This document shows positions 7,868 to 46,812 of a stretch of 64,000 nt of DNA, piece by piece. Origin of the DNA: a virus (Duplodnaviria; Caudoviricetes); the IMG/VR virus record IMGVR_UViG_3300027780_001580, positions 1-64,000 of that record. One strand, given 5' to 3'. How positions within the stretch are numbered: the first letter of the stretch is position 1; every line of letters begins with the position of its first letter. The translations under genes and the position numbers were made by a program. A model generated the notes under the pieces. The model did not search any database. It worked only from the letters and a program-made list of their open reading frames with translations, and was not told where the DNA came from.

Positions 7868-8560
7868 TTAACCTATTCCTACGCCGTCAGTTGAAGGTGC
7901 TTCAGCGTATCCGCCAACACTTGGTTCTTCTGGAAACTTAACCATGTGTGCTGGAATCTCTGCTGATGTACCTCTGCCGTACGTAACAGGTAGTTCACGT
8001 AATTTTGTTCTAAATGCAATCCATGGATTCTTTACACTATCAGGAGAATCTGCTGATACTCTGTGATCAGTTGAATCCAATCTGTCATTTCTTAATTGTG
8101 TCAATGTTTCCCACGTCTGCCAAGGTTGTTTCCATGTAAGTGTCCAATTACCAGTACCTTCATCGTGTACGCATAAATCTCTTTCGTATCCGTGATCTGG
8201 GTATGGTGGCCATTGTGTTGCATAGTTGCCATAACCTTCTGGTAGTGCAGTAACTACGTCAGCTTGTGTAAGTGTTACTGTATGCGGAAGGAAAATGGCA
8301 CACATTAATGTGTCTTCTCCAGCACAATCTAAAGTAACTAATCTTTCACCTTCTGGTGTAGTATCTGTAGTTGGGTTATAATGAAAATCCTCATCTGGTG
8401 GATTTTGTGATAGGGTGTTTTTCCCTGATGTTGCATCAACGTATATATACAGGCTATCTGGACCTGTGTAAGACGCTGTTGCTGTGTCCCCGTCATTATT
8501 CGTTTGGCTCAAATAAGCGTCGGGGATATCATATGTAAAGTTTTTTGTAATTTCAGCCAT
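7868..8560 (-). CDS. Tail fibre assembly chaperone-like protein
   Basis: WETLTQLRNDRLDSTD...WIAFRTKLRELP signature. The N-terminus EITKNFTYDIPDAYL is shared with 4880-6247. Confidence 0.7.
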   Translation of the reverse strand: MAEITKNFTYDIPDAYLSQTNNDGDTATASYTGPDSLYIYVDATSGKNTLSQNPPDEDFHYNPTTDTTPEGERLVTLDCAGEDTLMCAIFLPHTVTLTQADVVTALPEGYGNYATQWPPYPDHGYERDLCVHDEGTGNWTLTWKQPWQTWETLTQLRNDRLDSTDHRVSADSPDSVKNPWIAFRTKLRELPVTYGRGTSAEIPAHMVKFPEEPSVGGYAEAPSTDGVGIG

Positions 8561-8591
8561 TGTTTATTTCCTTCGTTTGTATTTAGTCATG

Positions 8592-9332
8592 TTAACTATA
8601 TGAAACCTTTACCATGCCGCCTGAGCCCCAATGGCCCCAACAACACGGACCGCCACATGCAGTTCCGTTAAATCCAGCATCACCTGGGTAAGGTTGAGCA
8701 CAACCCCATCCGCAACCCGAACAAGTCATTGGATTACCGCAATAATCTCGACCTTTTCTTGTGTTGCCACTCATTGGTGAACTTGGTACATAATCCCACA
8801 TTTGATTGTGGCAATAATGTGTTTGTAGTGGTTGTCCTCTACTATGTCCTAAACGTAAATCGCCTTGCGTTCCACCTGATATCTGTGAACATCCAAAGCA
8901 ACAGTTATAAGCATAGTGAGCGTGACAGTTAGTTCTGCCTGTACATCCGCCTCTAGCACATGTAGTTGCAATTCCTGAACCTGTAACATGACTAGTTGAA
9001 CCGTCAATTCCTAAGCAATCTCTTTCACAACATGCACCGTTACCTGCCGCACAAATTGTATATTGGCATCCTGCCACTGTATTGACTGACCTTATACTAT
9101 AAGATCCGCCGCCTGCATTTTGTGAACTAAATTGACAGCAACATGCACCTGCTCCTGCGGCACCTGCACCCCATAGCTCAAATGTTACGTTAACAATGTC
9201 TGCTGGTACTGTCCAAAGACAACAACAACCACCATTGTTAATTCCTCTATCATTATTGTATATATAGAAGAATCTAGTTGGAACTGAACGTCCCGCAACT
9301 GAATCGCCTAATAGTGTTCTCAGGTCTGCCAT
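8592..9332 (-). CDS. Cys/Gly-rich fibre-tip adhesin-like protein (paralog 3)
   Basis: CCCLW...FELWGAGAAGAGACCC...GSGGMVKVSY; about 25 Cys in 246 aa by hand count. Confidence 0.6.
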   Translation of the reverse strand: MADLRTLLGDSVAGRSVPTRFFYIYNNDRGINNGGCCCLWTVPADIVNVTFELWGAGAAGAGACCCQFSSQNAGGGSYSIRSVNTVAGCQYTICAAGNGACCERDCLGIDGSTSHVTGSGIATTCARGGCTGRTNCHAHYAYNCCFGCSQISGGTQGDLRLGHSRGQPLQTHYCHNQMWDYVPSSPMSGNTRKGRDYCGNPMTCSGCGWGCAQPYPGDAGFNGTACGGPCCWGHWGSGGMVKVSYS

Positions 9333-10046: not shown

Positions 10047-13000
10047 TTAACTCAATATAAACTGTTGCATCGCTACAGGGCCGCCGCTGACGCCGCCTGT
10101 GAAATGCATCTGTGCTGTTGTATTTATTAATACTCCGGTAGTTGTTGTAATCGTATTACCTTGAATATTGATAACACCAGCTGTTACACTATTTACGTTC
10201 AATTCTGACGCTCCTCCACCAATTTGGCTAGTAATATATGTCTTAATAGCTTTTTGGGTTGGAACAATATTGTCACTATTTGCAGTAAATGTACCGTCTG
10301 TACTAAATTCGTTAATTGTTGCACCAGCACCGCCAAGTGCTACTGCTCCAAGTTGTAGTTCTTGTAGTCCTGAAATACTAAACGCATCAGCATTTAGTGT
10401 TGCAATACCAGTTGCCTGTTCAACACTGAACAAATCACCTACTCTAAAGTTACCATCTTGGTCTGTACTTGTAAAGAATACTCTTCCTCCACCGCCTTCT
10501 ACAGCTTCATCTAATGGATCTGCCGCAGTAGTTGGTGTACCTGGATAGTTAGTAGTAGTAAATCCGCCTGTACCAATGTCTAGATAATCGTGTCCTGTTA
10601 ATCTACATTGTGAATATCTAATTCTCATTTCAATATTGTCACCGTGTACTGGACTATCATCTAGTGCCATATTTGGTGATATCTGTAATAATGCCGAGTA
10701 TGGTGAACTACCTGTTAATTGCGTAACACTAACTAGTTTAAAGAATGTTCCTGGAATACTAGCAAACTCAACGTTAGCACCTGCTTGTGGAATACTTTCC
10801 ATTCCCTCAACTTGCATGTACTTGCCGTCTTGTTTAGCATCTCTGTAACCTGCTCCGAATCCAATAGTACCGTTAGCAACATATGGGCTACCATTTGTAA
10901 GTACTGCTGGAAATAGTAACAAATAATCTAAGTAAAGTTGTAATGTGTTACCATCAACAACTTTTACATAGTAGCTGTTACCGTTAACTTGTGATGTTCC
11001 GCCAACTGCACTAATATTTACTTTATCGCCTGCAAGTAAACCATGTGTTGCAACAGTAATATTTAATATGCCTACTCCGCCATTAGTTGGTAAACTTGTA
11101 AGTCCGTTAATTAACCCTTCGTTAATAATATCAATGTGTTCACCTGCTAGTGTAATAGCAGTTGCTTCACCGTTGTTACCATTTGTAGTTTGCGTAGTTA
11201 CAACTGGACTTTGTAGAGTTGTATATGCAGAGTTAGCTAAAATTTTAGTAGTAATTAATGTTCTCAAAAACTCATAAGCCGCTAGTGCTTGACCTTGTCT
11301 GCCTGGCATTGATGAATTACCACCAATCCAATATGTTCTAGCATGTTTAATAGTTTCTTTAGTTCCGCCAAACTTAGCATCATGTGCTAGTGCATCAACA
11401 TAATCATCTACATTTGATTCCCATGTAGCTTTATCGTATGTAAAGGCATCCCATAATGAGCTACCAACAGCCGCGTTTGCAATTTGATTTTCAACATATG
11501 CAATAACTTCGTCTTTGATAAATTCTTTGTTTGCATTATACAATATATAAGCAAACGGATTAGCAGTAAATGTTAAGCCTGTAATATCTTTCTCATATCC
11601 TGCATCAACAACTGCCGCTGTTGCCGTTGTCCAACCTGTTCCTCTTGAAGCAAATACTGGTTGTCCAAGTACACCGTCACCTAAGAATACTTCCAATGGA
11701 GCATCTAGTGTGTTGTTTGGATCAATAAATGTTACTGTTGGAGGTGTTGTATAAGAAGCACCCGGATGGATAATTCTTATTTCACTAATTTTTCCATCTG
11801 CAACTTTTGCTCTTGCAATCGCTTGTGCTATTGCTGTTGATCCATCATTTTGTGGAGCACCAATAACAACTCTTGGTTCAATACTATAAGTTGATGTATT
11901 ATCTAGTTCAGCTTCAACTACTTGTCCTGAAACAGTAGTGTCCCATCCTGCACTATCATCACTGTATTTTTTAATTGTCGCAATCTTTGTACCTGCGTTA
12001 TATGAGTCAATATACCCATATTGTCCAGCACCCTTGCCGCCAACAATAAACAATGCTAATCCTGTGTATGCCGCACTAAGTGAAGCATCAGTGTTAGATA
12101 TTGTGATACTTGTAGTATTGCCAGTTTGTGGTACGTTTGTTGCAGTTTTATAATCAGCGCCACCAAATGTTTCAGCAGTTCCTGTTAGTCTAATTTCCAT
12201 AACACCACCACTAACTATTGTTGGTGCTAATCCTGTAATTCCGTAACCGTCACCTGTATAGCCAATTGTTGTGTTAGCAACTACGTATTCTCTACCTGCA
12301 TGTAAATACTCGTTGTGTATAATTCCTGCGTTGTTAGTTACAACTGCACCAATTACCGCATCAAAACTTCTGTTATCAACTGTTGCTTTAATAGCTGTTT
12401 CTGTTAAGTCAACCCCTTCAGCTACAGTACCAAAGTCACCGTATGAACTGTTACCGTTAGTAGCACGTATCTTACCGCCTTGTTCTGCAAGATAACCAAT
12501 GTGTCCGTAGTATGAGAACACGGAAACAAGCTCTGCTCTTCCTAAGTTAGTAACCCATGCACCAATACCTTCGTCAAGTACTTGTGTAAAGTCGTTGGCA
12601 ACAATCGAATCGTTACCGCCGTTATGGATATCTCCATCAACTTTTAGACCAACACATCTACTACCAAATGTTGTTACGTTTTGTACATATGGCGAACGTG
12701 TAATAATCCACGCATCTTCATCGTCTGGTCCCCAACTTGGGTTTAATGAACAAAATGCACCTGCTGTTGGACGTTTAGTTCCATATGCGTTTGCCGCTCC
12801 TAGTGTTCCTGTTAATCCTTTAATAGTACAGTTTCTTAATCCTGTGCCGTTTTCTAAATAGAACATGTCTTCTGTAAGCGATCCGTTAACAGCATTACTA
12901 AACCATCTACCCATAAGTGTTGAGTAATAGTTACCGTAGTTTTCTAAATCCCAAATAACTGCTTTTACATATTCTCTTAAATCTCTTTTACACTTGCTTT

Positions 13001-16000
13001 GGTTTACTGCCGAAGCTATTGATTCTTGGAAGTCTTTTGTTAGTGTAGCTTGAATAAATTCAAACCCTTCATCAACTAAGAATTCTAAGTTAGCGTAAAT
13101 TTTTCCTCTAGTGTCAGTGTAAGCGGCATCTACTCGTCTACCAACCTGTCCTGTAATTGTTGGTAATGTACCTACTCCGTTAACTTTGTTGTTAATGTAA
13201 TCATGAATATCTGCAAATAATAACTCAGCTGTTGTAACAGCCGCCGCAGTTCCTGCTGGTACTGCAACATTTTGTGTAGCTATATTGCCAAGTGCAATAC
13301 TTGCAACATCCATTGTAAAGTTAGCGGCACCGCCACCTCCTAATACTGAATCATTAAGTGTAATTGTATCGTTAATTGCATGTCCTGAACCAGATGTAAC
13401 AATAATAACGCTTGATACATCGCCGCCGGAGCCAACAATAACGTCAAATGTACCTACTGTACCTGAACCTGCACTTGCTCCAGTTACACCGTTATATGTA
13501 CCTGCAGTTCTACTTGCATCTGCCGCACTAAATGTATCCATTGTTAAGTGACCACCTGCTGGTGTTCTAGTTATAGCATTGTTTAGAATTGCATCTGAAA
13601 GTACTGCTTTGATTCTGTTTATAGCCGCTATAGTTAATTCTGCATCAGCTACGTTAGTTGGTCCTGCTGTTGAAGCACTAATTTCTGTACTACGTAATTC
13701 GTCACCAACAACTGCTGTATCTGCAGGAACAATAATTGGAAGTATTTCTGTATACTGTCCTGTTTTAACAAATAGTGTTACATTTGGTTTAACTTTTTTC
13801 GCTAAAGTTGTAATGTTACCAGCTGTAATAGTACCAGTAACTAATAGTGTTAGTGCGTTAGCTACAGTAGCAATATTTGGTTCTGCAGTTTTAGTAGCAT
13901 CTGTAACTTGTGCTACAGGTGCCGCAACACTATTTAACGTTGCATAGTTTACTGCTGGTGCTAAGTTTGTAATAATGTTTGGCAGTAAGCTCATTGCGTA
14001 ATTAACTACTGCATTAGTTTCTGCTTGTTGTCCTGCAACATAGTTTGCACCTGCTGGTGAAATATAAGATATTGCAACTTCACGCATTCTTACGTTTCCG
14101 CCGTGTCTTAGATCCCATAGTAATGCGTCTAAAATAATTCCAATGTCTCTACGACACTTGACTGCACTATATGTATATGCACTTGTAAATGGAGCAGTAT
14201 TATTTGCAATACTATGTGTAATAAACTCCATTGCTTGTTCTTGAATAAACTGTTTGTTACGTTCAACTAGGTACGTTGCATCTGGGTTACGAGGACCTTT
14301 ACGTATTTGGTCTGCCGCCCATCTTGTTGAAAAGAAAGGCTTATCAATTGTTACACCGTATGCTGGTGCAAATCCGTCAACGCCGCTTCTACCAACATAG
14401 TAAACTTGATCTAACTGGCCAAAGTATGCCCATTCAGGAGCATTGCCAGCAGTATTAACTTTAAGTACTTGTCCATCTTTACCAATTGGTAATCTAGCTG
14501 GACCACTACCACCGTAGTAAACTAAGTCACCAGCGGTTGTTAAGTTTCCTGATTCAACACCACCGGATATTAAGTTCCAGTAATCGCCAGCTACATCTTG
14601 ATCTGGTCTGTTTTGTACTGATACTTGATCTGATGTGTGTGCTTGTATACAAATATATGAGTTAGTATTGTTAATACCTCTAACAGTATCACCTAAATCA
14701 TAGTATGCCGCGTTAGCCCAAGCATCCTTCCAACTCATACCTTCGTTGAGTCTATCCCAATAAGTTACGTTTGGTGGTCTGTTGCCTGTACTATCTTGAA
14801 TAGTAATATATGTGTAACCGCCAACTCTAACAACATCACCTACTTTGTAAGCTGTTGAATTATTGTAGTTACCTTTTAAACTAAATCCTGTTGTAAATAA
14901 ATCCCAAGTTGCCGCGTTACCAAAAGGAACAACGCCATTGTTATTTGCTTTTGCAATATAAGAATAACCACCGTAAGTAACAAAGTCACCAATTTGGTAT
15001 GCTGTAGCAGTTGCCCAACTGTCTTCAAATTCTAAACCTGGAACAAACTGTTGCCACTGAGTTGAAGTTTCAATAGTAGCAATTCTAAATGTAAATGAAG
15101 TTCCTAAGCCGCCAATACTTGCTGGACTAACTGTAATTATATTTGCAACTGCGTGACCTTGACCACCTTTAACAACTGTAATTGTTGCCGCTCCAGAGCC
15201 GTCAATAACAACATTAAATCTATGTCCAGTTCCTGAACCGTTTGATGTTCCTGTAATATCTCTGTAAGTTCCAGCTACTCTGTCTGTGTCTGCCGCACTA
15301 ATTGTATCAATTGTTACAATGTGTCCTGCACTTTCAACATCGTCTGTTAAGCTAGTTGCACTTGATGTATGTTCATGTGTGTTAATCCAAAGACCACCAC
15401 CATACTTAACAACATCATTAAGTTTGTATCGTGTATTAATTGCATGTACTGATTTGTATTCAATGCCGTCATGTACAATATCCCACTTGCTTTGATCAGA
15501 TTCTAAACCTTCTCCAGCCGCCGCATTTGATAAATGACCTTCATTACAAATATATAGTTTTCCGCCATACTTAACTGTGTCTTGGCGTTTATATCTTGTT
15601 GCTACTGACCAGTTTGTTTTCCAATCCATGCCTTTTGAGAAAATATCCCACTTAGCTTGGTCTTTTTCTAAACCGTCTGTGTCTGAAGCTACAGATAGAG
15701 CTGACGTGTGTGCAGTATTAGCAATATATAAATTACCACCATACTTAACAATGTCATTGATTTTGTAAACTGTAGCAATAGTCCAGTTAGATTTCCAATC
15801 AAATCCTTCAGCAAATATATCCCATTTAGCTTGGTCAGTTTCTAATATTCCTGCAACGTCATCTGACACTGAACCATCTGCTGATGATGTGTGAGAAGTG
15901 TTACAAATATATAGCTGTCCGCCATACTTAACAATATCGTTTTGCTTGTAAAGATAATTAGTTGTCCATGACCCGTTCCAAGCACTACCGTCTGTAAACA

Positions 16001-41954: not shown

Positions 41955-42500
41955 TTATAGTAATTTCGCTAGTTCTGCTTTGTCCTGAGGACTAAGTGCG
42001 TCGATTGCTTTTTGGATATCTGCTGGTATACCACCTGGAGCACCACCTGGAGCACTACCGCCTGCGGCACCTCCTCCAAACTTATCACCTAAACTTGCTG
42101 GAGCCGCTTTTTGACCCACTGCCGCTTGACCTGCTTGTCCTTTAAATGAATCTTGCGAAACACCTTGTAGAATAGTGTCAACTTCTTTAGGAGTTATTGG
42201 ACCTGTCTTACCTGCTAATTGTTTTGTTGGAAGTTTTTGTTTTTGTAAAAAGTCTATAACTTCTTCTGCATTTGGCTTCTTATGGTTAGCACCTGTTTGA
42301 CCCATAAATGATCTGTACTGCGTAAATATTTCCTTTGCCCTAGCGTTAGCATCTAATCCACCTTGGATACCAGCCGCTGTTGCTTTTGCACCAACTGCGC
42401 CTGCTACTTTAGCACCTGCTTTTTTAGCTAAGTTACCAAGTACGTTGCCGCCAGGAGCCTCAGAAATAGTTGTTTCTGTTACTATCTGATTTATTTTCAT
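41955..42500 (-). CDS. Putative internal head protein
   Basis: MKINQIVTETTISE|APGG N-terminus, Ala/Gly/Lys-rich body, TATAAATA late promoter upstream. Confidence 0.55.
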   Translation of the reverse strand: MKINQIVTETTISEAPGGNVLGNLAKKAGAKVAGAVGAKATAAGIQGGLDANARAKEIFTQYRSFMGQTGANHKKPNAEEVIDFLQKQKLPTKQLAGKTGPITPKEVDTILQGVSQDSFKGQAGQAAVGQKAAPASLGDKFGGGAAGGSAPGGAPGGIPADIQKAIDALSPQDKAELAKLL

Positions 42501-42567
42501 AGCTTAAACTCCTTTATATAATATATTTATACTTAATTAGTCTCAAACTAACCGTAAATACTCGACT

Positions 42568-42753
42568 ATGGTTACACATTATATTGTAATGGATGGAAAC
42601 AACACCGAAGTAGCACAAGTATACAGCTATGAAGAAGCCCTCCTAACACAGCAACAGTTAAATGTCATGAATCCCCAAGAAGAATACACTATTGTTGAAA
42701 AACAACATAGTTATATCAAAGCTGGATTCGGTCGTGATCCTGATCTACATTAA
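42568..42753 (+). CDS. Small hypothetical protein
   Basis: 61-aa ORF ending GRDPDLH, with TAAATA at 42555-42560. Confidence 0.6.
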   Translation: MVTHYIVMDGNNTEVAQVYSYEEALLTQQQLNVMNPQEEYTIVEKQHSYIKAGFGRDPDLH

Positions 42754-42894
42754 TCGCGAGTGTCCATTAAGAATTGTATGTTAATGTATATTATTGTATT
42801 TGTGAGTGTATTGTATTGTTTGGAACAAGTACTACGTACTTGTTGTTTATCGCTATCGCTCAAACACTTCTATCTTTTATATAACAAGTGTTTA

Positions 42895-43325
42895 TATATG
42901 AATAATATAAGTGCGAAGCACTTTAGCATTATCTAGATAGTTAAGCCACAATTCGCCCGTTGCCGGACGAATTAAAAAAAGTGGAAACTCCTACATTATC
43001 TGAGTGAGCATCGCCACAACATGTTAAAGAAGATTTGTATGATATACAATGCATTCAACAATTTTAATAGTTAAATGTATAATATATAGTACAACGGAGG
43101 CGGCGTACCGCATACCCCCTACTTCAGCATTCGCAAATATACGCGGAAAGCAGTTGATCCCTAACAGTCGAAATCACTTACTCAGTGGTTGCTTTTTCTC
43201 AGAGCCACGATCTTTTATACCTAAGTTAGTATTGTCCTTGCAACTCGCTACACCCATCGACAGTATTTCATGCAGAATCTTAGCGGATCGAGCAACCCCG
43301 ATCAATCAATGTTGCTATGTTGTGC
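42895..43325 (-). ncRNA. Putative large structured non-coding RNA (~430 nt)
   Basis: Part of a ~570-bp gap in a gene-dense genome. At least seven stems on the minus strand, with GCAA (42950-42973) and UACG (43096-43119) tetraloops and G-U pairs that work only on that strand. Confidence 0.65.
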
Positions 43326-43748
43326 CTATATGTTTTTTAATGCTTCGATTAAGATTTTAGAACTGCCAACTCGTACATTAATGATACCGTTGTAATATTC
43401 ATCGGTCTCAAGTACTCTACGATCAAACTGTTCTTTTGCCTCTATGTAACTTAAAACGCCTCTGCTAGGACAAAAATGCAAAATTTCTCTTGTAAATTTA
43501 TCTTCGCCTAATGTTGCAACGTCTGCTAATAGCTTGTCACTAGATCCCCAATAAGTTTTCCAGTCACTTTCCTTAGTTCCACGTCTTTTATTTTTTCTGC
43601 CTTTTAGCGGCGGTTTAGTTGTTTTAAATCGGGCTAATTTTTTGCCTATGTACTTGCGGTCGTTAGTTAAGTTTGTTATCAAATATACAAAACCTTCGCA
43701 GTCTGTTGGAAGATCCTCTATTTTCTTGTTTTGATAAGTCCACTGCAT
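43326..43748 (-). CDS. GIY-YIG endonuclease (T4 EndoII/Seg-like)
   Basis: GFVYLITN...KYIGKK, YWGSS, FTREIL, EAKEQ and YYNG.I. Confidence 0.85.
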   Translation of the reverse strand: MQWTYQNKKIEDLPTDCEGFVYLITNLTNDRKYIGKKLARFKTTKPPLKGRKNKRRGTKESDWKTYWGSSDKLLADVATLGEDKFTREILHFCPSRGVLSYIEAKEQFDRRVLETDEYYNGIINVRVGSSKILIEALKNI

Positions 43749-43772
43749 GAACTTACTTACTGTTGCCTGTGA

Positions 43773-43979
43773 TTATTGTTCTTGATTGTGGTTTGTCTTG
43801 TTAGATGTAAAGTCGTCCATGATCTCTACTCGTCGAGCAGAGCATAGTCGTCTAATTTCACTGAGCCACTTACGAGCTTCACGCTTAGTACGTTCGCTTT
43901 TACGAATTTCAAATGATTCGTTAGCTTTATAGTACCGCATGTACGCCTTTGTAAGTAGATCATGTGTATCGTCTTGCAT
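43773..43979 (-). CDS. Small basic helical protein, possibly DNA-binding
   Basis: 68 aa; the REARKWLSEIRRL...RR.EI pattern resembles small histone-H1-like bacterial/phage proteins. Confidence 0.5.
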   Translation of the reverse strand: MQDDTHDLLTKAYMRYYKANESFEIRKSERTKREARKWLSEIRRLCSARRVEIMDDFTSNKTNHNQEQ

Positions 43980-45757
43980 TACTGAATCTCAATATCGTTA
44001 TCGTAGCTAGTAAATCCGTTCTCTTTAATAACTTTAAGCACGTTAGTAACACGCCCAATTAATTCATCTTTGTGTGAAATTAGATATACGTTCTTATTAC
44101 GTTCTCTAGCCATCTTCTTTAAAATACTAATTGAACATTCAACACCAGCAGTATCCATACCACTATCAATAAGCTCATCGATAAACAATAAGTTAATATT
44201 CTGGTACAAACTTTCCCATACGTCACGGAATGACCAACTCATACCAAGTATAAGTCTATTACGCTCTCCTCTTGACAAGTTATCAAAGTCTAAGTCTTGT
44301 CCTAGCTGTTGTATCTCAACAGTAAGATCGTTTTTAAATACAACTGTATGCGGAAGACCGATCTTATCAAGATAGTATGTAAGTCTGTTGTTTAAGTATG
44401 CTAAGTTTTGTTCAATAATCTTTTTACGAATAAAACTATCTTTATTTGTTAACAACTTGTACAAGAAGTCTTGATGTTCTTTTTCACTAGTTAGGTCGTT
44501 AACAACTTCCCAATTAAGTTCTTGAATAGCAGTTTCATTCAAATCATCAATCTGTTCTTGATAAGGATCAAGTTCTTCTTGCTTTGCTGTTAATGCACTC
44601 TTCAAATTATCAACATTACTTCTATGCTCGTATGCTTCTTTAGCATTTTCATAAAATGTATTAGGTTTACTTTCAATATCACCTAGTTCAGAAATCTTTG
44701 TAACAACTTTATCAAACTTATCAGCAATTTCAATTAGGTATGTGTGTGCATCACCGTAATCTTTTTGTAATTTTTCTACAAGTTCTTCTAATTTGTCGTC
44801 ATGTAAGTCTTGCCCACAAGCATAACACTTTGCGTGTTCTAAATCGTCTAGTTCTTTACCAGACTTCTTCATATTCTTGTCAGCTTGTTCTAATGCACGT
44901 TCAACTGTTGATCGTTCTTTGATTAAATTGTTACTCTTGGTAGTTTTTTCTGACCAAGTACTAAGAAGATCGTGAGCTTCTAGCTCAGAGTCAATGTCTA
45001 GCTTTTCTAAATCTTTAATTGCTTTATCTAACTTGTCACAGTCTTGTTTATTTTGAGAAATCCAAGCCTTGCGCCTAGTATGCAATCGATCAATGTTTTC
45101 TTTAATTTTTTCGTTGCTTGTTGTAACTGCTTGTAGTCTAGCAGTTTCTTCTGTAAGCTGATCTTTAGTTTTTTTAGATTCTTCTCTAAGTCTGTCAGCT
45201 TTTTTAGATAATATAGTAATACCTAGTAACTGTTCAATGATCTCTCGTTGATCATTACTCTTTAATGATAGAAAGGGTTCTGTATATGTGTTTAATGCAA
45301 GTATATGCTTAAACATAGTATGACTCATGCCAAGAAGTGTGTTGATATCTTCTTGAGTCTTACGACTATCACCTTGACTTTCGTCAGTAATCTCTTGATC
45401 CTGATCATCAATACTAAATTTTAACAAATTAGGTTTACGTCCACGTTCGATATGATATTTTCTACCATCTTTTTCAAACGTAAGTGTTACCAACATCGCT
45501 TTGTTATTAGTTTTATTAACTAAATTGTCCTTGCGTATGTTAGTTAGTGCTTGGCCGTACAGAGCATATGACAACGCATTAATAATTGTTGTCTTTCCTG
45601 TACCGTTACGGCTCCCAGAATCGTCACCTCCTTGATCTAAGTTTTCACCAAGCACTAACGTCAGTTGTTCGCGGTCAAAATCAACACCTTGTGTAGAATT
45701 ACCTACACTCATAAAGTTTTTAACTGTTAATTCTTTTATCTTAATCATCTCTACCAA
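43979..45757 (-). CDS. gp46: Recombination endonuclease subunit, SbcC/Rad50-like (gp46)
   Basis: KNFMSVGN, Walker A NGTGKTT, zinc hook CYAC, signature LSRGE, Walker B FIDE and ISH. Confidence 0.95.
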   Translation of the reverse strand: MVEMIKIKELTVKNFMSVGNSTQGVDFDREQLTLVLGENLDQGGDDSGSRNGTGKTTIINALSYALYGQALTNIRKDNLVNKTNNKAMLVTLTFEKDGRKYHIERGRKPNLLKFSIDDQDQEITDESQGDSRKTQEDINTLLGMSHTMFKHILALNTYTEPFLSLKSNDQREIIEQLLGITILSKKADRLREESKKTKDQLTEETARLQAVTTSNEKIKENIDRLHTRRKAWISQNKQDCDKLDKAIKDLEKLDIDSELEAHDLLSTWSEKTTKSNNLIKERSTVERALEQADKNMKKSGKELDDLEHAKCYACGQDLHDDKLEELVEKLQKDYGDAHTYLIEIADKFDKVVTKISELGDIESKPNTFYENAKEAYEHRSNVDNLKSALTAKQEELDPYQEQIDDLNETAIQELNWEVVNDLTSEKEHQDFLYKLLTNKDSFIRKKIIEQNLAYLNNRLTYYLDKIGLPHTVVFKNDLTVEIQQLGQDLDFDNLSRGERNRLILGMSWSFRDVWESLYQNINLLFIDELIDSGMDTAGVECSISILKKMARERNKNVYLISHKDELIGRVTNVLKVIKENGFTSYDNDIEIQ

Positions 45758-46757
45758 GCTCCCGGTATATATCTAACAGCTTTTTCTTGTCAAAGTTGTC
45801 TGATTCAATTGCTTCAATCTCTTTAGATACAATCTCGTCAACACTTTCAAACTGTGCAATGTCAATTTCACTGTTCATAGCTTCGTCTTGTGTACTTGGA
45901 ATCAGTGTAATCTCTCTGCATTCATATTCTTGAATAAATGTTTCTTTAATAAAACTTGCTTCTTCGTAACTAATAGGTAAGTCTAATGAAACTCGCAAAT
46001 ACATCTTAGGTTTAATAAGTGTATCTTTCTCATCTAATAGTCGACTTAGTTTTACAGTACGATACTTAGGGCAGTTCCACCAGTTAATATACTCAGGTTC
46101 ACCATCGTGTTCTAAAATCATCATGCCACGTTCGTCATCCCATGCATCTGCATAGTTGTGTGGCAATGCATTTCCAATATAGTGTACAGGTCCTTTAACT
46201 TGACGCTTATGAAAGTGTCCACTAAACACATATTCTTGGTGTTGGAAATGTTCTGCTCTAAGTTCTCCGTGGTCTGGCATCTGTACCATAGCATTCATAT
46301 AGAAACTAGGCAGTTCAAAGTGTCCAAATATATACTTGCTTTTAATTTTACTAATCTTTTTCCACTCATCTCCTACTAACCAAGGAACAAGTGTGCTATC
46401 ACCAATGGTCATAATTTCATTAACCATTGTAATGCCGTCAATATGTTTACCAAATGCAACAGAGTTTAAATCTCTTTTGTCTTTGTAGTATAAATCGTGG
46501 TTTCCAGGAAAGAAGTAAAAGTTTTCAAACGCTTTACCCAACTTTTCTAAAGAACGCAGAGTAGCATCAAGTGTTGTAATGTTCAAACTGTTTCTATTAT
46601 GATGCCAATCGCCCATAAAGATACCAGTCTCACAGCCAGCGGCTTGAGCTTGTTCAATGTACCAATCTATGAATTCTTCACAGTCGTCATTGTGCGTTTT
46701 TGAATTGGACTTTAGTCCAAAGTGTATGTCTGTAAAGACAGCGGCCTTTTTAAACAA
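45741..46757 (-). CDS. gp47: Recombination endonuclease subunit, SbcD/Mre11-like (gp47)
   Basis: Metallophosphoesterase motifs TDIHFG, MGDWHH, GNHD, GHFE and SGHFH. Confidence 0.95.
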   Translation of the reverse strand: MFKKAAVFTDIHFGLKSNSKTHNDDCEEFIDWYIEQAQAAGCETGIFMGDWHHNRNSLNITTLDATLRSLEKLGKAFENFYFFPGNHDLYYKDKRDLNSVAFGKHIDGITMVNEIMTIGDSTLVPWLVGDEWKKISKIKSKYIFGHFELPSFYMNAMVQMPDHGELRAEHFQHQEYVFSGHFHKRQVKGPVHYIGNALPHNYADAWDDERGMMILEHDGEPEYINWWNCPKYRTVKLSRLLDEKDTLIKPKMYLRVSLDLPISYEEASFIKETFIQEYECREITLIPSTQDEAMNSEIDIAQFESVDEIVSKEIEAIESDNFDKKKLLDIYRELGRDD

Positions 46758-46783: not shown

Positions 46784-46812
46784 ATTGTACAACATATAGA
46801 TTCAAGTGTCAA
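46784..46812 (-). promoter_or_regulatory. Sigma70-type promoter for the gp47-gp46-GIY-YIG operon
   Basis: TTGACA-17 nt-TACAAT. Confidence 0.75.

Follow-up and report, generated by a model that had tools for sequence, protein, structure and literature searches.

The window analysed here, which comprises positions 1 to 64,000 of the IMG/VR record IMGVR_UViG_3300027780_001580, contains a structured RNA of about 495 nt on its minus strand (43318..42822, as delimited by the alignment of relatives), directly behind a gene for a minimal GIY-YIG nuclease (43326..43748, minus strand, 140 amino acids). The source record is a 125.8-kb fragment from an uncultured virus, with a CheckV completeness estimate of 35%. 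The RNA possesses two pseudoknots and a pair of unpaired boxes carrying the same word, it is represented in RNA libraries, and its family occurs independently of the nuclease gene. It is probably a stand-alone functional RNA gene belonging to a modular family of large RNAs, in which the twin boxes would confer specificity in trans and the nuclease would be a neighbour. Large RNAs with an intricate fold and no known function are rare, and new biochemistry has come to light with every one solved to date; the family described here is common in uncultured phages of the ocean and of fresh water.

Fold of the RNA and its twin boxes

The full-length fold was derived from 14 aligned RNAs of type A, the type to which the window belongs. 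In a structure refined by hand (80 pairs in 16 helices), 97.5% of the cells are paired as compared with 39-44% in slid controls, and 31 of the 80 pairs show compensatory change as compared with 2-5 in these controls; RNAalifold gave compensatory change in 25 of 80 pairs for the same RNAs. Many G-U pairs would become A-C on the opposite strand, and the fold z-score is -2.04 for the minus strand versus -1.51 for the plus strand. The compensatory changes in the 14 relatives, together with the G-U pairs, confirm the structured minus-strand RNA that had been proposed behind the nuclease gene from the letters of the window (hereafter the original prediction). Its start at the nuclease stop also stood, whereas its 3' end had been placed too early at 42895, as the RNA runs on to about 42822 and includes the hairpins H13, H14 and H15. 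A coding role of the open reading frames (ORFs) in the gap was rejected, since these are not kept in relatives, indels of 1-2 nt occur, and the spacing of the boxes (50-67 nt) has no period of three.

The RNA begins with a three-way junction (43240..43315; all features of the RNA lie on the minus strand) composed of P1, P2 and P3 with a variable inner hairpin, in which all 16 of 16 pairs are 100% paired. P1 (GCAAC/GUUGC; 43315-43311 with 43244-43240) shows compensatory change in relatives, as does P3 (CGCU/AGCG; 43285-43282 with 43249-43246) in four of its four pairs, and the P2 hairpin (43286-43303) is kept in them. The same is true of P5 with its inner hairpin P5a (43185..43208) and of the inner stem of P6 (43174-43170 with 43161-43157). 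Further on, P8 (43125-43122 with 43032-43029) encloses P9 (43119-43096) and the position of P10, and spans 43029..43125. In the first pseudoknot, the P6 loop (43167-43162) pairs with 43026-43021 and four of six pairs are compensatory; the second, which was detected by scanning all column pairs, joins 43144-43139 to the apical loop of P9 (43108-43103), with four of six pairs compensatory and 100% pairing. Compensatory change thus affects 8 of the 12 pairs of the two pseudoknots combined. Most of the stems drawn earlier (GCAAC/GUUGC, CGCUA/UAGCG, 43286-43303, 43185-43208, 43155-43176, 43096-43119 and 42950-42973) were recovered in place and show compensatory change. Two were not upheld: the stem at 43132-43145 competes with the better-supported second pseudoknot, and the long AU-rich stem at 43035-43094 belongs to an AU-rich insertion (~45 nt, after P10) that only the window has among the 14 aligned RNAs.

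The 3' domain was compared across 33 diverse RNAs, in which its helices are 86.1% paired versus 36-40% in slid controls; the covariation score is 0.432 versus 0.167 in shuffles, and 0 of 500 shuffles scored as high. H12 (42950..42973) is a 10-bp hairpin with a GCAA loop, located between the boxes, and 7 of its 10 pairs are compensatory in this set. It is followed by H13 (42909..42923), which is covarying and resembles a terminator in the consensus scan, by H14 (42844..42867), and by the terminal hairpin H15 (42825..42843), in which 7 of 8 pairs are compensatory; the hairpins within 42825-42923 (H13-H15) covary as RNA. In H14, the most conserved piece of the family, a stem leads through a pair of facing GA dinucleotides to a 2-bp stem capped by a GNRA-type loop. 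A pairing of GGCUCAA with UUGAGC given by RNAalifold was dropped, as it is broken by other types and the local hairpin H14 covaries instead. According to a comparison of alignment coordinates with ORF positions, H15 in relatives lies directly against the stop codon of the gene on the opposite strand. In the middle domain, a GCGAA(U/G) strand (equivalent to 43196-43201; A1 columns 196-201) repeats the 3' strand of H12 and changes together with H12. It may alternatively pair with the H12 5' strand (6 pairs, of which 2 are compensatory), and could represent a switch or the trace of a tandem duplication.

The two boxes stand on either side of H12. Box 1 (CUC followed by AGAUAAUG; 42994..43004) precedes H12, and box 2 (UCU followed by AGAUAAUG; 42927..42937) comes after the conserved strand that follows it; the repeat AGAUAAUG at 42994-43001 and 42927-42934, flanking this hairpin, had been correctly noted in the original prediction. 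The twin single-stranded 7-mers are identical in 96 of 100 model-aligned RNAs, in which 13 different words are found. An independent pattern search returned identical words in 76 of 78 cases, and both misses were due to the search pattern. The four exceptions consist of one alignment gap, one RNA differing at the seventh letter, and two low-scoring members misaligned by the model; these two and a third divergent member each carry a quite different word of their own twice, with a length of 7 to 11 letters. Each box column covaries best with its counterpart in the other box. A search for an exact 7-mer complement of the box between -1300 and +800 nt returned none. In the aligned 3' domain no column is complementary to it, and the columns separating the two type-A box groups hold no partner either. 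The boxes change in concert, neither the RNA nor its flanks contain a complement to them, and their probable role is that of a specificity element. Read by eye, the likeness extends upstream of each box as a succession of helix, short conserved strand and box. Hence, the 3' half of the RNA appears to be a tandem duplication, in that a comparable arm would end in each box. The same box word was found with both types of H12, i.e. the modules of the RNA have been shuffled.

Family membership and presence in RNA libraries

No match to an Rfam family was obtained in the window at the gathering score, and nothing meaningful was seen on 42400-43900 at E values up to 10. ARAGORN reported 0 tRNA or tmRNA genes in the window, in line with the earlier statement that the RNA is neither. 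A group I intron was likewise rejected, because the window has no Rfam match to it and the RNA sits between genes and not inside a host gene.

Relatives were collected partly by an IMG/VR search with gp46, encoded upstream of the nuclease gene, which gave 80 loci of 65-100% identity, and partly by a pattern scan of viral contigs, of which 53 of 120 loci turned out to be conserved coding sequence and were excluded after nhmmer. A conserved non-coding element follows the nuclease in 53 of the 53 gp46-anchored loci that extend 600 nt or more beyond it. A covariance model of the 3' domain (R1; 177 positions, built from 33 sequences including the window) matches the window over its full length (1-177; 138.9 bits, E 8e-34) and 100 of the 100 phage loci searched. 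The 5' and middle parts exist in several versions that differ between lineages, and the 3' domain is universal. At least 112 distinct RNA loci were counted among those fetched from one virus collection. In cellular genomes, a pattern scan of GTDB representatives yielded 15 matches, none of which is the RNA, and R1 hit only pieces of 18-22 nt.

A catalogued orphan motif, Polynucleobacter-1 (RF01718), has a divergent relative in the window RNA. In eight distant loci, this model matches the 5' domain with 59.7-118.4 bits (cut-off 37), starting 1 to ~80 nt past the GIY-YIG stop, and the match to the 3' domain follows 70-180 nt later in 8 of 8 loci; it was made by R1 in seven of them and by nhmmer alone in L078, which was not among the sources for R1. 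As the motif fills the slot of the window 5' domain and is followed by the same 3' domain, it was concluded that Polynucleobacter-1 makes up no more than the head of a far longer RNA. The RF01718 model itself has no match in the window (E up to 10) or in types A-C. The earlier description of the RNA as undescribed was therefore right in so far as the window matches no family in the Rfam scan, and has to be corrected in that freshwater-type relatives have a catalogued motif as their 5' domain. Polynucleobacter-1 has been described from Burkholderiales and from fresh water and estuary, with a possible cis-regulatory role (Weinberg et al. 2010; PMC2864571). The motif and the window RNA agree in the slot of the 5' domain after the GIY-YIG stop, in the 3' domain downstream, in being orphans and in their aquatic samples. 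They differ in size (141 positions versus ~495 nt) and in the twin boxes, H12-H15 and both pseudoknots, which the motif lacks; moreover, the motif is listed as possibly cis-regulatory, and the next gene after the window RNA is on the opposite strand. Thus only a 141-nt piece of some members had been catalogued previously, as an orphan motif, and in annotation Polynucleobacter-1 should be treated as the head of a much longer phage RNA. No description of the window RNA was found in the literature searched, which included parts of a 2023 catalogue of viral structured RNAs (PMC10690425) and of the 2010 paper; the supplements of both may list the region.

Near-identical DNA was found in sequencing runs of 15 studies, six runs being RNA libraries, and four RNA libraries from four studies were compared with the locus. 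Contigs 43082-43648 (depth 69) and 43117-43800, from two studies, join the nuclease gene to the 5' half of the RNA, and contig 42803-43090 spans the 3' half and ends shortly after the last hairpin (three studies in all for the contigs). Together with the position of the best promoter before gp47, the joined contigs support the predicted co-transcription of the RNA with gp47-gp46-GIY-YIG, in a unit that also includes p68. This sigma-70-like promoter (TTGACA-17-TACAAT, 11/12 consensus; 46784..46812, minus strand), the likely start of the unit, is a putative site from a consensus scan, which gave 19 sites in the sequence versus 16.9 expected from shuffles. In some relatives, ~70 additional nt immediately precede the RNA and, as read by eye, contain a TTTACA-N17-TATAAT-like site. 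Before position 43082, contig 43082-43648 carries a 29-letter T-rich loose end, which corresponds to a non-templated poly(A)-like tail on the minus strand and hints, in this one contig, at a minus-strand 3' end at 43082. The contigs of two studies stop at 43082-43090, a hint of processing. The uneven cover is, like the tail, no more than a hint, and parts that are uncovered (42501-42700 in RNA libraries X15 and X16) prove nothing.

Two side observations concern these libraries. A 44-nt piece of the nuclease gene (43483-43526) is present at high depth in separate short contigs in 4 of 4 RNA libraries, with unlike sequence on both sides; this piece is a conserved core common to the alleles of other phages. 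Furthermore, an AUAGGCA-like word is found at the 5' border of the RNA in many loci. It lies at 43318-43325 in the window and just upstream in L011, L025, L222 and L226. It is also present inside the window nuclease gene (43643-43650, across the YIG codons), and an RNA-library contig ends exactly at this word (43648), in adapter. The word could be a start site, a processing site or a product of chance.

The nuclease gene, proposed working and rival explanations

The nuclease matches the Pfam family SegE_GIY-YIG (PF19835; 1.2e-34, residues 3-123 of 140; phrog_447) and has no second Pfam match. T4 Seg proteins have ~200 amino acids or more. An AlphaFold2 (AF2) model of the nuclease has a pLDDT of 83, and its best, albeit weak, Foldseek match is the catalytic domain of I-TevI (TM 0.53-0.60 on the target). 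There are 49 invariant columns among GIY-YIG proteins down to 50% identity, and the Y, G, R, E and N positions, which we take to be the GIY-YIG motif residues, are invariant in 15 proteins. The database label 'NAD synthetase' for this nuclease family looks like a mis-annotation. In Melnitz and ACG-2014f (L211), a homologous minimal GIY-YIG gene is found a few small ORFs past the gene for the small subunit of ribonucleotide reductase (nrdB), and T4 denA presumably occupies the corresponding place after nrdB. An assignment to EndoII/DenA was nevertheless rejected, as neither the protein nor the 15-sequence profile gave a PDB sequence match and Foldseek ranks I-TevI first, weakly.

The original prediction had joined gene and RNA into a candidate nuclease-RNA system. 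This is not supported by the distribution of the two, since the RNA occurs without the gene at three distinct loci of a different phage group in the DNA examined: L152 (1540-1852; 49.4 bits with R1), L222 (about 12950-13381; 70.9 bits) and L226 (about 8490-8827, the same as L229; 47.5 bits). Such independence from the nuclease gene had been named beforehand as the observation that would speak against a partnership. These RNAs are preceded either by a TATAAATA box or by a short ORF for a basic protein (66-73 amino acids), and have tail-fibre-like, holin-like and zinc-finger-like ORFs as neighbours; the small protein encoded upstream of them has no similarity to p68, the small basic protein that precedes the nuclease in the window lineage. 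Relatives of L152 were sought via its neighbouring gene, and only L152 itself was returned. The gene also occurs without the RNA. In Melnitz, the GIY-YIG protein (L001:4964-5407) is 80% identical to that of the window and is encoded after nrdB, gp46 is 27% identical, and no RNA is present anywhere in the genome, the best model hit (16.5 bits) lying inside a polymerase gene. In the cyanophages S-SRM01 and ACG-2014f and in phiN3, the GIY-YIG proteins are 42-53% identical and a coding gene follows directly, without RNA.

Comparison of sequence identities leads in the same direction. Over 82 loci, the Spearman rho with the RNA is 0.40 for GIY-YIG identity, less than the 0.58 for gp46. The window and L004 agree to 93% in gp46, to 89% in the RNA 3' domain and to 78% in the GIY-YIG protein, and the nearest alleles of the window nuclease (85-86%) occur in L168 and L185, i.e. 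in phages with 58-62% gp46 identity. As the window nuclease is closer to the alleles of these distant phages than to that of L004, a horizontal exchange of the nuclease gene alone seems indicated. In L185, the nuclease is 86% identical to that of the window, yet the RNA differs from the window RNA in both box word and H12 type. The gene shows signs of mobility in these allele swaps and in the transfer to Melnitz, yet p68 and GIY-YIG are found in the same order in 77 of the 80 gp46 loci, the remaining three ending before that place. On these grounds, the nuclease looks like a neighbour of the RNA and not like its partner.

Action in trans, and the nature of what the boxes bind, we infer as follows. 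The RNA would be the last element transcribed from the early gp47-gp46-p68-GIY-YIG unit, its knotted body would hold the boxes in a fixed geometry, and two equivalent arms would each offer the identical word to one copy of a common partner, which may be a complementary nucleic acid (RNA or DNA) or, with its two halves, a dimeric protein. The box word would set the specificity, and the GIY-YIG gene would be a free-standing nuclease gene of the Seg/I-TevI kind that has settled next to a conserved RNA gene, much as T4 segB has among the T4 tRNA genes. This specific mechanism, in which an RNA acting in trans offers one word to two partner copies by means of its arms, is put forward tentatively. 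The twice-written, fast-changing word looks like an address; hence, swapping the word should change the target of the RNA.

Several observations weigh against a stand-alone RNA with the nuclease as a neighbour. In the T4-like lineage, 91 RNA loci have 1 kb or more of upstream sequence, and 90 of them carry the GIY-YIG gene on the same strand within 900 nt; a patchier distribution would be expected of a selfish nuclease gene. The protein consists of the catalytic domain only, the C-terminal DNA-binding domain being absent according to Pfam, which leaves room for a helper. Members without the gene are few (three loci), two of them have low scores (47.5 and 49.4 bits), and two of the contigs were examined in part. 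No partner for the boxes was found in the searches in cis, nor did the 13.7-kb contig of L222 yield a complement to its 11-mer. A 7-mer is too short to be followed through genomes, and the 12 copies of AGATAATG in the 125.8-kb record (~6.3 expected) are uninformative. Lastly, the contigs cannot show the ends, strand or level of the RNA, DNA may be present in RNA libraries, and the tail was seen in one contig.

A minimal GIY-YIG enzyme guided or scaffolded by the RNA, with the twin boxes choosing the target, would account for the common strand, the ~10 nt between gene and RNA and their junction in RNA-library contigs, as well as for the co-occurrence in the T4-like lineage (90/91 and 53/53), the reduction of the protein to its catalytic domain, and boxes that are variable, single-stranded and duplicated. 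It is nevertheless very unlikely, given the three loci with RNA and no gene, the genes without RNA in Melnitz (80%) and in the cyanophages and phiN3 (42-53%), and the lower rank correlation of the nuclease with the RNA (0.40 versus 0.58). Moreover, the nuclease allele of the window has been swapped and its RNA has not, L185 combines a like nuclease (86%) with an unlike box word and H12 type, and two identical guides would address only one strand. The version in which the RNA is programmable, the twin boxes (7-11 nt, at least 13 words) docking as guides on two target copies and the co-transcribed GIY-YIG protein of the marine T4-like lineage being the effector brought there, deserves very little credence; if true, it would be the first RNA-directed GIY-YIG nuclease. 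We know of no RNA-guided GIY-YIG enzyme, and none was found in the literature searched; the accessible part of the 2026 Minerva preprint does not mention GIY-YIG. The arrangement resembles IscB/omega-RNA (HEARO) and OMEGA systems in that a nuclease gene adjoins a large structured RNA with a variable segment, and differs from them in the fold of the nuclease (GIY-YIG versus RuvC/HNH), in the separate occurrence of RNA and gene with no co-evolution seen (rho 0.40 versus 0.58), and in the presence of two identical short segments in place of one long guide. A nuclease gene beside a structured RNA is thus not by itself evidence for an RNA-guided system.

Alternatively, the nuclease may be a homing endonuclease with its cut site in or near the RNA gene, which would make the RNA its cargo or target; adjacency, mosaicism of the RNA and contig breaks would then be footprints of gene conversion, and the boxes perhaps sites at the DNA level. 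The SegE-type domain with its weak best fold match to I-TevI fits such a role, as do the exchange of the nuclease allele independently of its flanks, its transfer to Melnitz, the shuffled RNA modules with the same box word beside both H12 types, and the 14 of 77 gp46-anchored loci that end 109-324 nt after the nuclease stop. Nucleases at exchange boundaries are described in the part of PMC10448857 that was available. The closest precedent for the arrangement is T4 segB, which, according to PMC2330249, is a Seg-type GIY-YIG gene within the tRNA gene cluster of a T4-like phage, i.e. beside structured RNA genes; its nuclease favours the inheritance of this RNA region and makes no use of the RNA. 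The window protein differs in having 140 amino acids without a DNA-binding part, in being fixed in its lineage, and in being known here from sequence alone. We consider homing unlikely, as the gene is found in every lineage member with DNA at that place (77/80) and is under strong constraint (49 invariant columns), the nuclease has no DNA-binding domain, and adjacency would be explained but not the role of the RNA, whose covarying helices reflect selection at the RNA level. An ornate RNA that assembles with itself like ROOL, GOLLD and OLE, its boxes serving as contact or cargo sites, would agree with the size, the two pseudoknots, the conserved unpaired stretches and the phage origin; cryo-EM assemblies of three large RNAs are shown in the part of PMC12286853 that was available. 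This is highly improbable, since the families of ROOL, GOLLD and OLE gave no Rfam match and identical, mostly non-palindromic boxes (as read by eye) cannot pair mutually. GOLLD and ROOL are likewise hundreds of nt long, rich in helices, pseudoknots and conserved unpaired stretches, borne by phages or prophages and of no known function, but their models have no match in the window and their architecture is different. To our knowledge, neither of them has twin boxes. Finally, a cis element of the operon, such as a 3'-UTR (untranslated region) stabiliser, a terminator, a processing platform, or an origin or primer RNA (R-loop), would suit an RNA that closes an early unit where transcription converges, the terminator-like H13, the contig ends near 43082-43090 in two studies (a hint of processing), and the AU-rich tract beside the RNA. 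It is barely plausible, as ~500 nt, two pseudoknots and twin boxes far exceed the needs of a terminator, the family is also found behind the late-type TATAAATA box with other neighbours, and the AU-rich tract is specific to the window. Template-jumping reverse transcription, in which direct repeats surround a template, was also considered; no reverse transcriptase (RVT_1) was found in the 125.8-kb record (35% complete according to CheckV), so a template role would have no enzyme there.

Neighbouring genes and assembly ends

The minus-strand order in the window is a late-sigma-like gene, gp47, gp46, a 68-amino-acid gene and the GIY-YIG gene, followed by the RNA. The gp47-like gene (Mre11/SbcD-like; 45741..46757, minus strand) was named by synteny with the annotation of the Pseudomonas jumbo phage PA5oct, in which an SbcD-like subunit is encoded directly upstream of the gp46 match. 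The gp46-like gene (Rad50/SbcC-like; 43979..45757, minus strand) matches Pfam AAA_23 at 2.7e-14, and matches to SMC_N and the Rad50 zinc hook are also present, under the curated cut-offs. PA5oct is its closest cultured relative, with 49% identity, the highest to any cultured phage. The order sigma-gp47-gp46 is common to PA5oct and the window; the nuclease gene and the gap are both absent from PA5oct. The protein p68 (43773..43979, minus strand) is small and basic, belongs to no known family, and is always encoded immediately before the GIY-YIG gene in the lineage.

The gene-free stretch measures 572 nt, from the GIY-YIG stop (43326) to the next ORF with relatives, a converging plus-strand gene of 61 amino acids (42568..42753) that belongs to no known family and has relatives in many loci. 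A TATAAATA-type late-promoter box at 42518-42546 precedes an Ala/Gly-rich gene of 181 amino acids (41955-42500), after which comes a gene of 892 amino acids of no known family. With this late-type box and its genes beside the locus, the RNA lies at the border of the early unit and the late genes.

Many assemblies end at this locus. The 14 gp46-anchored loci mentioned above belong here, and contig ends inside the RNA gene are seen, for example, in L016, L040, L044-L046, L049, L058, L062, L067, L068 and L080; among the loci from the pattern scan, L083, L093, L099, L103, L114, L122 and L140 are further examples. Upstream, 21 of the 112 RNA loci have less than 1 kb, and 10 of these less than 45 nt. 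The breaks fit conserved ends around swappable middle modules on which assemblies would break, the alternative being a physical genome end.

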